Below are positions 1,412-4,121 of a DNA stretch of 4,121 nt, one piece after another (within the stretch, counting starts at the first letter, position 1; each line of letters opens with the position of its first letter). A model generated the notes under the pieces. That model had not been told where the DNA came from and ran no database searches. It worked only from the letters and a program-made list of their open reading frames with translations. Location of the stretch: the IMG/VR virus record IMGVR_UViG_2541047739_000010. One strand, 5' to 3'. The position numbers and the translations under genes are program-made. The stretch is from a virus. Lineage: Duplodnaviria > Heunggongvirae > Uroviricota > Caudoviricetes.

Positions 1412-1699
1412 TTAACGGTTCAACATCCAGATCAGCAGACACGCCACCACCGGCACAGCAAAATCCATCAGGCTTGCCACATCCCATGCACGTGGATCAA
1501 AACCGCCCCACCAAGGCATGTTAATCCGCTTGCCATGCCCGAACATTTCAATCCAGCGATATTCTGCCTGGGTGTGTTCACGCGCAATGAAGAACGTACA
1601 ACCGGCTATCGCCCCGTAAGCCCAGTTTCCGGTAAAAAGACCAGCCAGTACCTGCACCGCCACGGCACAAAGCGCATGAAGTATCGACGTGATATCCAT
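1412..1699 (-). CDS. Hypothetical small membrane protein (95 aa, 2-3 predicted transmembrane segments); prophage cargo gene of unknown function.
   Basis: The ATG at 1699-1697 has an AGGATAG Shine-Dalgarno about 7 nt upstream. Hydrophobic segments are ILHALCAVAVQVLAGLFTGNWAYGAIAGCTFFIA and VASLMDFAVPVVACLLIWML, separated by a Trp-rich polar loop. By eye the GC content is noticeably higher than in the flanking prophage DNA. It is the last gene before the junction and sits only 9 nt after the preceding gene. I do not recognise the family. Confidence 0.7.
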   Translation of the reverse strand: MDITSILHALCAVAVQVLAGLFTGNWAYGAIAGCTFFIAREHTQAEYRWIEMFGHGKRINMPWWGGFDPRAWDVASLMDFAVPVVACLLIWMLNR

Positions 1700-1708
1700 C
1701 TGCTATCC

Positions 1709-1987
1709 TTAAAACCACTCCCTGAGCGGGCGCTCTGGTGTAACCACCCACTCACGGAACACGGAATCATCAAATCCATCGTCAAGAAGACGGATATTAA
1801 CAAAGTACCCTTCGTTTCGCGTGTATTCTGGTTCTCCGTCATCAGAAACATCTGTCTCCCTGAACGTAAAACCAATCTCATCAACCAGAACGGCATTCTG
1901 CAGCTCTTCGTCCTCTTCCCAGTTAAGTTTCCTGAGAAATGCCCTGAAATCTGCTTTATCACTGAAACGCAACGTGAAATCTCTCAC
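1709..1987 (-). CDS. Hypothetical acidic protein (92 aa) translationally coupled to the tail fiber gene; possible non-canonical tail fiber chaperone or accessory protein.
   Basis: The GTG start at 1987-1985 overlaps the tail fiber TGA stop (1986-1984) as GTGA; there is no internal Met. Composition is protein-like and rich in Asp/Glu, whereas the overlapping 118-aa ORF in another frame is Arg-rich junk. It shows no resemblance to lambda Tfa as I recall it. Confidence 0.6.
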   Translation of the reverse strand: MRDFTLRFSDKADFRAFLRKLNWEEDEELQNAVLVDEIGFTFRETDVSDDGEPEYTRNEGYFVNIRLLDDGFDDSVFREWVVTPERPLREWF

Positions 1988-4053
1988 TCCACAACCTCCC
2001 CAAGCTGCGCATCTGTTAGCTCTTTATGCCAGAGACGAAAATTCCTCACATGCCCAAATAAATGGCGTAATCCTGCTGTAGTTTGTCCACCAATGCGAAT
2101 GGTTGCTGTACTCCGGATATATTCCCATGTGGTTTTTGTTTCGCTGGATATACGCCCGTTACTTACTGCACATGTAGACTGATCTGACTTTACACGCATC
2201 CCCATAACCATTTTTTTCAACGATGCGTTTTCGTTAACACGCCTATTTGATCCACCAATATCGCAATAAGGAAATCCGTCTGGCCCATCTGCCGAAGATC
2301 CGAAGCCAAGAATAATAGCCGCTCCGGTTTGATGACCGCCGGTATCAAAAACACGTGGCGCTGCATTTGGCGTTTTATACCAGTTCTTATGTACCTCACA
2401 AAGAACCGTAAAAGGAAGATTATAAAGATTATTCTTAATCGGAACTGTAACCATATCGCTTGCCCGCGTTACCGGTGCCGTCCCCGTAACAATAAAAGAT
2501 GATGCGCCTGTACCAGCCTCAATCTGTGGAGTGGTTACATCGAGATAATCCCCTGATGCAACCATCTGCCCTGTATCCGGAGAATACTGGACAAAACCAC
2601 CAACCGTATTTTCTGTTGTATCTGCTTTTAATGTAGCCTCAAAAAATATCCAGCCAGTTGCATCATCCTTAACAGACCTTGCTGTAACACGGCTTGTCTG
2701 ACCTGTCTTGCTAATTATGCGGGTGGTAAGGTTCAGGTTTGCTGCTCCTATTGATGTCCTTACCTCCCCATCATAATGTTCAAATAAAATACGAACGGCG
2801 ATATTATCAACTTCACTTTTTACCCGACAGGATATAGTTACATGCTTTTCGTCCCCTGAAGTATCAACCCCTCCGGTACTCGAATACAGTCCGATAATGG
2901 TATGCGCTTTACTTGTACCAACAATCGAATCCTGTACGACAAACCGGCCATAATTAAACCCGAAACTATCTGTGCCTGTTTCTGTAACGTCCAGTGAAGT
3001 TGACTTATTCCACTTCGAAGGGTCTGTACTGTTCGGGAAGAAGTTCGTTCTTTGCCCCTCAATAAGCAGGCCATCACACTCAAATCGTGGCTCATTAATT
3101 TCCGCCGTTTTCAGTTCGCCAGATTTGTTGATATATGTTGCCGTTGATGCGCGACTGAAATTAACCTGTTTATCACTGGCAACCTGAACCACATTATCAC
3201 CAATCTTCACTTTTTTATAACCCGGAGAATAGCCCGTAATCATATCCAGCGAATCATTAAAGGGTATCCACACATCCGGCAGCGGCTGTAAAACATATCT
3301 GTACGGCTCTGCTGTCTGGTTTGCGTATTCTCTGGCAGCATCTTCACTTGCTTTTGCTGCCGTCTGGCTTGCTGCCGATGCTTTCGCCGAGTTCGCCGCC
3401 GCTGTTTCGCTCACCTTTGCGTTGGCTTCACTGTCTTTGGCATTCGTCTCACTGGTTTTCGCTGCCGTCTGGCTGGATTTTGCGTTTTTTTCGCTGGCCT
3501 TTGTGGCTGTCTCGCTATTTTTCGCGCTGGTTTCTGATTTTTTGGCTGCTGTCGCGGAGTTTGCCGATGCAGTCTGCGAGGCCGCTGCCGCCTGTGCGCT
3601 GTTAGCTGCATTCGTTTCTGAGGTTTTCGCCGCGTTCTTCGATGATGCCGCTGCAGTTTCGGATTTCTTTGCTGCCGCTGCGCTCTGTGATGATGCTCCG
3701 GCATGACGTGCCACTTCATTCACCATCAGCTCAAAACGGCGCAGTGCCTCCGGACGAACATCATCCTCCGTCATGGCACCGAGAAAATCATTCAGCGTAC
3801 CTGGTCTGGAACCTTCATAGACGGTAATGGTCCCAACATGTGATGGCTGAGAACCCTCAATCCACAGGATGACGCTGTACTGACCATACTCAACGTCCAT
3901 ACTGTAACGCCCGGCTTCATCCGGATTTTCAGAGGCCACCGTGTTCACCAGTACCGTGGTGCTGTTACGCTTTGCCTTCAGTTGAATAGTGCAGTTCTGT
4001 ATTGGTTTTCCCGCACCATCTTTCAGCACACCTGAGATTTTTACTGCTGCCAT
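1984..4053 (-). CDS. stf: Lambdoid side tail fiber protein (Stf family), about 689 aa, mosaic: conserved N-terminal domain, Ala/Ser/Thr-rich SETNA-type repeats, and a divergent C-terminal receptor-binding region that probably ends in a LamG/ConA-like jelly-roll domain.
   Basis: The N-terminus MAAVKISGVLKDGAGKPIQNCTIQLKAKRNSTTVLVNTVASENPDEAGRYSMDVEYGQYSVIL... is nearly identical to the lambda Stf N-terminus from memory. The repeat region (KKSETAA, KTSETNA, KNSETAT...) resembles the lambda Stf repeats. The C-terminal end, GHVRNFRLWHKELTDAQLGE, resembles the characteristic end of laminin-G-like domains. The six-frame ORF starts at a GTG (4059); the ATG at 4053-4051 with a GGAG 5 nt upstream is preferred. 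Confidence 0.9.
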   Translation of the reverse strand: MAAVKISGVLKDGAGKPIQNCTIQLKAKRNSTTVLVNTVASENPDEAGRYSMDVEYGQYSVILWIEGSQPSHVGTITVYEGSRPGTLNDFLGAMTEDDVRPEALRRFELMVNEVARHAGASSQSAAAAKKSETAAASSKNAAKTSETNAANSAQAAAASQTASANSATAAKKSETSAKNSETATKASEKNAKSSQTAAKTSETNAKDSEANAKVSETAAANSAKASAASQTAAKASEDAAREYANQTAEPYRYVLQPLPDVWIPFNDSLDMITGYSPGYKKVKIGDNVVQVASDKQVNFSRASTATYINKSGELKTAEINEPRFECDGLLIEGQRTNFFPNSTDPSKWNKSTSLDVTETGTDSFGFNYGRFVVQDSIVGTSKAHTIIGLYSSTGGVDTSGDEKHVTISCRVKSEVDNIAVRILFEHYDGEVRTSIGAANLNLTTRIISKTGQTSRVTARSVKDDATGWIFFEATLKADTTENTVGGFVQYSPDTGQMVASGDYLDVTTPQIEAGTGASSFIVTGTAPVTRASDMVTVPIKNNLYNLPFTVLCEVHKNWYKTPNAAPRVFDTGGHQTGAAIILGFGSSADGPDGFPYCDIGGSNRRVNENASLKKMVMGMRVKSDQSTCAVSNGRISSETKTTWEYIRSTATIRIGGQTTAGLRHLFGHVRNFRLWHKELTDAQLGEVVE
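3320..3700 (-). repeat. Intragenic imperfect tandem repeats encoding the Ala/Ser/Thr-rich fibrous shaft of the tail fiber.
   Basis: Repeated DNA motifs occur here, for example GCTGCCGTCTGGCT at roughly 3356-3369 and 3461-3474, together with repeated TTTCGCTGG-type units. This produces the cluster of spurious overlapping ORFs at 3321-3719 and corresponds to the protein repeats of the KxSETNA type. Confidence 0.5.
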
Positions 4054-4064
4054 ATCCACTCCAC

Positions 4065-4090
4065 AAAAAAGCCCGCCTGAACCGGCGGGC
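4065..4090 (-). terminator. Rho-independent terminator on the minus strand, immediately upstream of the tail fiber start.
   Basis: A perfect 7-bp GC stem, GCCCGCC (4071-4077) with GGCGGGC (4084-4090), encloses a 6-nt loop. The A-tract at 4065-4070 on the plus strand is a U-tract after the hairpin on the minus-strand transcript. It lies between the end of the upstream (unseen) gene and the stf ribosome-binding site. Confidence 0.55.
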
Positions 4091-4121
4091 TGTCATAACA
4101 CTGTGTTACCTGGCTAATCAG

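Follow-up and report, generated by a model that had tools for sequence, protein, structure and literature searches.

The window analysed here, a stretch of 4,121 nucleotides from a caudoviricete record (IMGVR_UViG_2541047739_000010), raises the question of what a very small gene does at the place where a gene for a tail fibre assembly protein of the Tfa type would be looked for. Tfa-type proteins of lambda, P2 and Mu comprise about 175–195 aa and have a gp37-like fibre tip as their partner. In the window, the side tail fibre gene stf (691 aa; 1984–4059, minus strand, from the ORF listing) is instead followed by a gene for an acidic protein of only 92 aa (1709–1987, minus strand, from the ORF and its match to PHROG 1361), which is in turn followed by a gene for a membrane protein of 95 aa (phrog_1443; 1412–1699, minus strand, from ORF and PHROG). 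An initial reading of the letters alone, hereafter the sequence-only reading, had proposed two possible roles for the small gene: a new minimal fibre chaperone, or a partner of the membrane protein in a toxin-immunity or exclusion pair.

The small gene begins with GTG and ends with a TAA at 1709–1711 on the minus strand. Its start codon (1985–1987) and the TGA of stf (1984–1986) overlap as GTGA (1984..1987, minus strand), the minus-strand sequence across the overlap reading ...GGGGAGGTTGTGGAGTGAGAGATTTC, and a Shine-Dalgarno-like GGGGAGG (1995–2001, minus strand) is located within the 3' end of stf, with 7 nt between it and the GTG; in phage 21, a ribosome-binding site is annotated at the corresponding position. 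The spacer from the TAA to the ATG of the membrane gene (1699) is 9 nt long (GGATAGCAG) and contains an AAGGA-type site. Both the stop/start overlap and the 9-nt distance had been described in the sequence-only reading, and both can be read directly from the sequence. The encoded protein (11.2 kDa) has a pI of 4.26, with 24 Asp and Glu residues versus 12 Lys and Arg residues, and the pI values of its family range from 4.05 to 4.49. It is a full-length member of PHROG 1361 (E 1.1e-40, residues 1–92 on profile positions 1–92 of 92), a family annotated as being of "unknown function", and the GTG of the window gene lines up exactly with the ATG at which its homologues start. Furthermore, the gene is under purifying selection where no distal fibre exists, with a dN/dS of 0.26–0.31 among close alleles from loci of the window's type, which lack such a fibre. 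The end-to-end profile match, the alignment of the starts and this dN/dS together show that the gene is not a chance open reading frame, and the acidic 92-aa product predicted from the letters is thus real.

As an object, however, the gene is not new: it is already catalogued as phrog_1361 and is common in E. coli, where the window allele at a nucleotide identity of at least 95% was present in 365 of 5426 complete genomes, including that of CFT073, and was labelled "hypothetical protein" among the E. coli matches listed. Neither Caudo_TAP (PF02413) nor any other Pfam or NCBIfam family matched the protein at E ≤ 1; the absence of a Caudo_TAP match in both collections indicates that it is not a Tfa, in agreement with the sequence-only reading. 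No published function was found for the protein, a literature search for "phrog_1361" being likewise empty, and no function is assigned to it in the literature on DT57C, the BASEL collection, the AKFV33 proteome, the evolution of Salmonella T5-like phages or the engineering of lambda STF.

Within the family, M1, D3, L6, F8, D36, I38, G39, G60, V63, N64, R66, R89 and W91 were found to be invariant or nearly so. The AF2 model of the window protein (pLDDT 90.8) is a compact α+β structure with two helices and the element order β1-α1-α2-β2-β3-β4-β5, followed by an extended C-terminal tail that bears the invariant R89 and W91. A possible identity as a PKD/Ig-like repeat was considered and rejected, as the resemblance rests on the motif F.F.E.D.SDDG.P.Y....GY.V.I.L.DDG (Pfam and BLASTP check), the window protein has no Pfam PKD match, and the AF2 fold is α+β with two helices. 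Giant multi-PKD proteins (P0032, P0043 and P0045) owe their scores in this comparison to numerous weak repeats of 25–35% identity each; these were not accepted as homologues, the likeness being summed over repeats and limited to the motif level (D..G...Y.V.v.v.D..G). A profile search of PDB sequences returned telomerase p19 only, a chance match. Among 56 matches in 1.84 billion representative proteins, none was fused to a fibre.

The fibre encoded upstream had been described as being of the lambda type, which holds for its first ~250 residues but not for the remainder. The former comprise a PF08400 domain (residues 5–134, E 2e-65) and a shaft of repeats rich in Ala, Ser, Thr and Glu (3283..4059, minus strand), a lambda-Stf-type part that is lineage-specific and without a link to the small gene. 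The C-terminal 430 residues form a different head (Stf residues 260–691; 1987..3282, minus strand), which co-occurs with the small gene, and the lack of a Tfa is therefore to be expected rather than anomalous. Searches against Pfam and NCBIfam identified neither Tfa, nor S74, nor any other known chaperone in the window fibre or beside it.

The head is composed of a conserved junction (PLPDVWIPFNDSLDMITG), a β-sandwich similar to the head spike of gene transfer agents, and a second β-sandwich ending in RHLFGHVRNFRLWHKELTDAQL. The first domain matched NF048003 (GTA_spike_fiber; residues 332–533, E 8e-20) and is homologous to Rcc01080 of RcGTA (PDB 6TB9; phmmer E 5.7e-6), the closest solved relative of the fibre head. 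The second domain ends in RHLFGHxRNFRIWHKxLTDxQ, a terminal motif that points to a LamG/concanavalin-like β-sandwich. For the T5-like phage IrisVonRoten, Humolli et al. 2025 (PMC11990801) describe the homologous part of Gp22 as a galectin-like domain that protrudes at the end of the fibre. The head is conserved at its junction and at its extreme C-terminus, and the cores of both domains are hypervariable, as would be expected of glycan-binding surfaces. All matches listed in a search for homologues of the Stf head were at least 94% identical, and yielded no alignment useful for modelling the head. In ev243 (locus L001, 2639–3068) and 2G7b (locus L003, 1769–2067), short fragments of a "tail fibre assembly protein" are found further 3', beyond a methyltransferase gene, and probably derive from a lambda-type stf-tfa module that was replaced.

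Homologues of the small gene were found by tblastn in 191 phage records, 185 of them near full length (at least 80% coverage). The carriers include lambdoid phages (ev243, mEp460, 2G7b, phage 21 and PhiR47_1) as well as other coliphages, namely the T1-like KarlJaspers, the T5-like IrisVonRoten and AKFV33, and the rV5-like CarlMeissner, in addition to Dhillonvirus and 9g-like phages. In every locus inspected, the gene is positioned directly 3' of a lateral or side tail fibre gene, and in 85 of 87 loci there is a stop/start overlap of 1 or 4 nt with the preceding fibre gene; the remaining two loci yielded no fibre ORF in this position. All fibres encoded 5' of the homologues share only their C-terminal ~430 residues, corresponding to residues ~260–691 of the window Stf, and their N-terminal attachment domains and shafts are specific to the phage lineage. 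The head was detected in 202 phage records (at least 80% coverage) compared to 185 for the small gene, and the two seem to pair close to one-to-one, since a 92-residue query is less sensitive and orf136 of AKFV33 is a homologue only at the 30% level. The proposal that the gene is tied to the fibre and occupies the place of Tfa is thereby strongly supported, given the 85 overlaps and the roughly one-to-one association with a single head across unrelated phage groups. The same head is also found in prophages of pathogenic E. coli, e.g. CFT073 and ST131. A scan of species-representative genomes with a very strict pattern returned three loci, two of them from Escherichia, and carries little information on distribution.

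The pairing extends well beyond the coliphages. A relative with 32% identity to the window protein is encoded by a gene overlapping that of a 565-aa fibre with the same head. The Aeromonas myophage 13AhydR10PP encodes a 557-aa fibre followed by a 101-aa homologue (HMM 52 bits), and the T4-like cyanophage S-WAM2 encodes a shaft-less protein of 423 aa, corresponding approximately to the head alone, followed by a 116-aa homologue (HMM 40 bits). The motifs DxxG, G[YFW]HVNxR and PxRVW/FA are kept in both homologues, and the window head aligns with the heads of both phages. Among 72 environmental viral contigs that contain the whole head gene and enough sequence 3' of it, a member of the small-gene family was present on the same strand in 50 and directly adjacent in 44, the adjacent pairs mostly overlapping by 4 nt; for about 30% of the distant environmental heads, no homologue was detectable. 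RcWaterboi gp56 from Rhodobacter, a close relative of the RcGTA head-spike fibre, consists of the first domain alone and lacks a small-gene homologue. The Rhodobacter proteins thus have one domain and no small-gene partner, and the small gene accordingly goes with the two-domain form of the head. The pairing is ancient, head and small gene being co-inherited over very long evolutionary distances.

Within this pairing, the small protein does not follow the parts of the head that vary. Identical small proteins were found with different variable head domains and with different distal fibres, and the correlation between small-protein identity and the identity of 40-residue head windows was weak (r 0.2–0.5, the best value being 0.53 at the junction) and too confounded by lineage to point to an interface. 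The protein is consequently the constant element and does not read the receptor-binding surfaces, and if it binds the fibre, it would bind the conserved parts of the head.

Based on these observations, we favor the interpretation, to which we assign a probability of roughly 55%, that the two-β-sandwich fibre head has in the small protein a dedicated partner for its assembly or maturation. The head and the small gene would constitute one cassette that recombination has transferred to fibre shafts in many unrelated phages. Translation of the small protein would be coupled to that of the fibre on the same message, giving roughly matched amounts of the two, and the product would fold into a compact acidic α+β domain. 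It would bind to the head at a conserved, non-variable site and aid the folding, assembly or maturation of the head on the fibre, and it would thereby fill for this head the role that Tfa has at the tips of lambda-type fibres. As the gene is kept in loci without a distal fibre (window-type loci, the Aeromonas phage and S-WAM2), its core role probably concerns the head itself. Some observations speak against this interpretation. Lectin-like β-sandwich domains usually fold unaided, and the need for a chaperone is thus not obvious; moreover, around 30% of the distant environmental heads come without a detectable partner gene. In addition, the IrisVonRoten fibre (Gp22 and Gp24) has been modelled without mention of the small protein (PMC11990801).

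A comparison with known fibre maturation systems places the proposed head partner beside Tfa, P2 gpG and Mu gpU (Caudo_TAP, PF02413) in several respects: the gene lies directly 3' of the fibre gene, travels with a particular C-terminal module, and has a presumed role as an assembly aid for that module. In contrast to Tfa, the small protein is much shorter (92 aa compared to about 175–195 aa) and shows no sequence match, its partner is a double β-sandwich head instead of a gp37-like tip, and it does not co-vary with the variable receptor-binding part. The Peptidase_S74 domain (PF13884) represents an alternative solution for fibre maturation and is present in the distal fibres of sister loci, whereas it is absent from the window Stf (Pfam), and the small protein is always a separate polypeptide.

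The most serious alternative arises from these sister loci, as two types of locus can be distinguished. In the first, represented by the window, ev243, phage 21 and mEp460, the membrane gene comes directly after the small gene; in the second, which comprises many other loci, a third gene encoding a distal fibre of 225–586 aa comes after it. The resulting order of proximal fibre, small gene and distal fibre was found in 2G7b, KarlJaspers, IrisVonRoten, AKFV33, JenP2-like phages and the locus L090, with distal fibre genes located e.g. at 3325–4362 in L003, 4270–4947 in L004, 4289–6013 in L005 and 5077–6750 in L094. The distal fibres belong to four unrelated classes, each with its own Peptidase_S74 intramolecular chaperone, and therefore need no small protein for their folding. 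All four classes nevertheless share an N-terminal motif of 26 residues, M-[AV]-T-x-T-V-I-P-x-D-I-x-x-L-K, and among the 60 matches listed, the full 26-residue stretch was matched only in cassette-carrying phages, whereas in the distal relatives from DT57C and phiEco32 the match does not begin before residue 27 or 49. The stretch is probably a plug-in docking peptide. In IrisVonRoten, the distal Gp24 is a T-shaped receptor-binding protein attached to the proximal Gp22 (Humolli et al. 2025, PMC11990801).

These features would be accommodated if the small protein were a joint or adaptor, analogous to the T4 gp35/gp36 hinge, that stays in the virion where the proximal fibre ends and forms all or part of the platform to which the distal fibre docks via its 26-residue peptide; in window-type loci, the distal fibre would have been lost and the small protein left behind as a cap. 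The gene order in many loci, the motif shared by four unrelated distal classes and fully matched only in cassette phages (among the 60 matches listed), and the position of a constant protein between two variable receptor-binding cassettes are all consistent with such a joint. The same applies to the C-terminal tail, where the conserved PxRxW, modelled with lower confidence, resembles a docking peptide. Furthermore, 7 of the 92 small-protein columns separate loci with a distal fibre from loci without one, compared to 1 of 445 in the head, although this separation can also be explained by linkage, as the small gene adjoins the distal gene. Other observations are harder to reconcile with a joint: the gene is under purifying selection in the absence of a distal fibre (the window, phage 21, mEp460 and ev243), both the Aeromonas phage and S-WAM2 have it, with no distal-fibre-like gene annotated after it, and a published AlphaFold-Multimer model joins Gp24 of IrisVonRoten to Gp22 without the small Gp23, which is not mentioned (PMC11990801). 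Since loci without a distal fibre keep the small gene, a role as joint cannot be the whole story, and we consider it a tentative explanation that is rather unlikely to be the correct one.

Fibres in which a proximal protein carries a distal one via a conserved N-terminal segment are well represented by the T4 gp35/gp36 hinge, DT57C LtfA/LtfB and phiEco32 gp14/gp15, and multi-gene branched fibres with an N-terminal docking segment have been described (PMC4728585, PMC11990801). None of these proteins is related in sequence to the small protein, and in both DT57C and phiEco32 docking of the distal protein is direct, involving neither a small third protein nor the 26-residue motif. In further contrast to all three systems, the small protein described here persists even where there is no distal fibre. 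That the small protein is a stoichiometric subunit of the virion, forming with the head a conserved heteromeric receptor-binding and joint module on which S74-type distal fibres dock, is possible yet doubtful. If true, it would amount to a previously unrecognised three-part fibre architecture, extending from lambda-, T1-, T5-, 9g- and rV5-like coliphages to Aeromonas phages and cyanophages, and a retained joint subunit would explain how modular distal fibres plug onto proximal fibres. An assembly partner of the head and a retained joint subunit are not mutually exclusive readings, and of the two we favor the former.

It could also be argued that the gene is linked to the fibre simply by hitch-hiking with the head cassette and acts as a regulator or an anti-host factor rather than in fibre assembly. 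This leaves unexplained both the overlap and adjacency maintained from coliphages to cyanophages and the presence of the gene in strictly virulent phages with compact late operons, and we regard it as improbable.

The second role put forward by the sequence-only reading, in which the acidic protein and the membrane protein would act together in toxin-immunity or exclusion (or, as a further variant considered here, in lysogenic conversion), draws on the arrangement of the two genes, which are adjacent on the same strand, with a 9-nt gap, in the window as well as in phage 21, mEp460 and ev243. The membrane protein was modelled with three helices (AF2, pLDDT 92), and a fold search with this three-helix bundle gave no informative match. 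An alignment of 27 homologues chosen from 563 revealed a nearly invariant loop, REHTQAEYRWI..FG.GKR.NMPWWGGFD, which suggests that the protein has a specific activity and could be taken as a hint in favor of such a pair. The distributions of the two genes are, however, clearly different. The same type of search returned 563 homologues for phrog_1443 and 25 for the small protein, the former from Escherichia, Salmonella, Enterobacter, Leclercia, Citrobacter, Aeromonas and Comamonas. Without the small gene, phrog_1443 is found between the tailspike and integrase genes of the P22-like phage Gally, in a Comamonas prophage, where it lies 3' of gpJ, and on the Aeromonas chromosome, where it stands alone. 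Conversely, the small gene has no adjoining membrane gene in the virulent T1-, T5- and rV5-like carriers examined, none of which were among the phrog_1443 matches listed. In many lambdoid phages, a fibre gene of 229–346 aa parts the two genes, and the membrane protein is ~90% identical in lambdoids whose small proteins range from 43 to 98% identity. Neither protein matched any of the PADLOC defence models, and the small protein had no Pfam match. The membrane gene is situated near the attachment end in both lambdoid and P22-like prophages; its location next to the prophage end in the window suggests that it is an independently acquired and distributed prophage accessory gene. With the two distributions independent of each other, a two-gene module can be rejected as very improbable.

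A dedicated partner of the head would be of practical relevance, as fibre heads of this type decide the recognition of O-antigens or surface glycans in many coliphages, with published examples in the T5-like IrisVonRoten and AKFV33. Should a working head depend on the small gene, transplants of the head onto lambda, T5 or T1 chassis must include it, and a "hypothetical protein" could be renamed in ~190 genomes of phages and several hundred of E. coli. The protein would then represent a new class of fibre accessory proteins, unrelated to Tfa, gp38, gp57A and S74.

For virions of AKFV33 (L094), published mass spectrometry covered four large bands only (PMC3326045). The fibre protein ORF137 of this phage has a predicted mass of 83.1 kDa and was assigned to a virion band of 95.8 kDa (PMC3326045). 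The excess is close to the mass of the small protein (orf136, 10.2 kDa), and is probably an anomaly of gel migration.

The surroundings of the three genes identify the locus as the right-hand end of a lambdoid prophage, which runs from base ~1276 to the end of the window and is read on the minus strand. Bases 1–936 are E. coli chromosome and contain, on opposite strands, yebW (DUF1482; plus) and the phosphatase gene pphA (minus). Among other E. coli genomes, many match the window from base 1276 on only, and five also match across pphA. As the matches from many genomes begin at this base, the junction between prophage and chromosome is placed near 1276, where an AT-rich spacer separates pphA from the membrane gene. 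Other strains have the same prophage end at other chromosomal sites.

At the opposite side, a strong terminator-like hairpin with a T-run (4070–4091, minus strand; 8 pairs, 7 of them G-C) is located immediately 5' of stf, and a terminator is annotated at the corresponding position of phage 21. With this hairpin in front of them, stf, the small gene and the membrane gene would be transcribed either separately or by read-through after lom, and the fibre operon may accordingly need its own promoter or read-through past the hairpin. Just 3' of the stop codon of the membrane gene, finally, there is a palindrome of 18+18 nt (1361–1396; AGCCGCAGTATCCTGTCA/TGACAAGTTACTGCGGCT, 89% complementary), which encloses an inner perfect palindrome, TGTCATGACA, and which may be either a terminator without a T-run or a site for protein binding or recombination near the prophage end.
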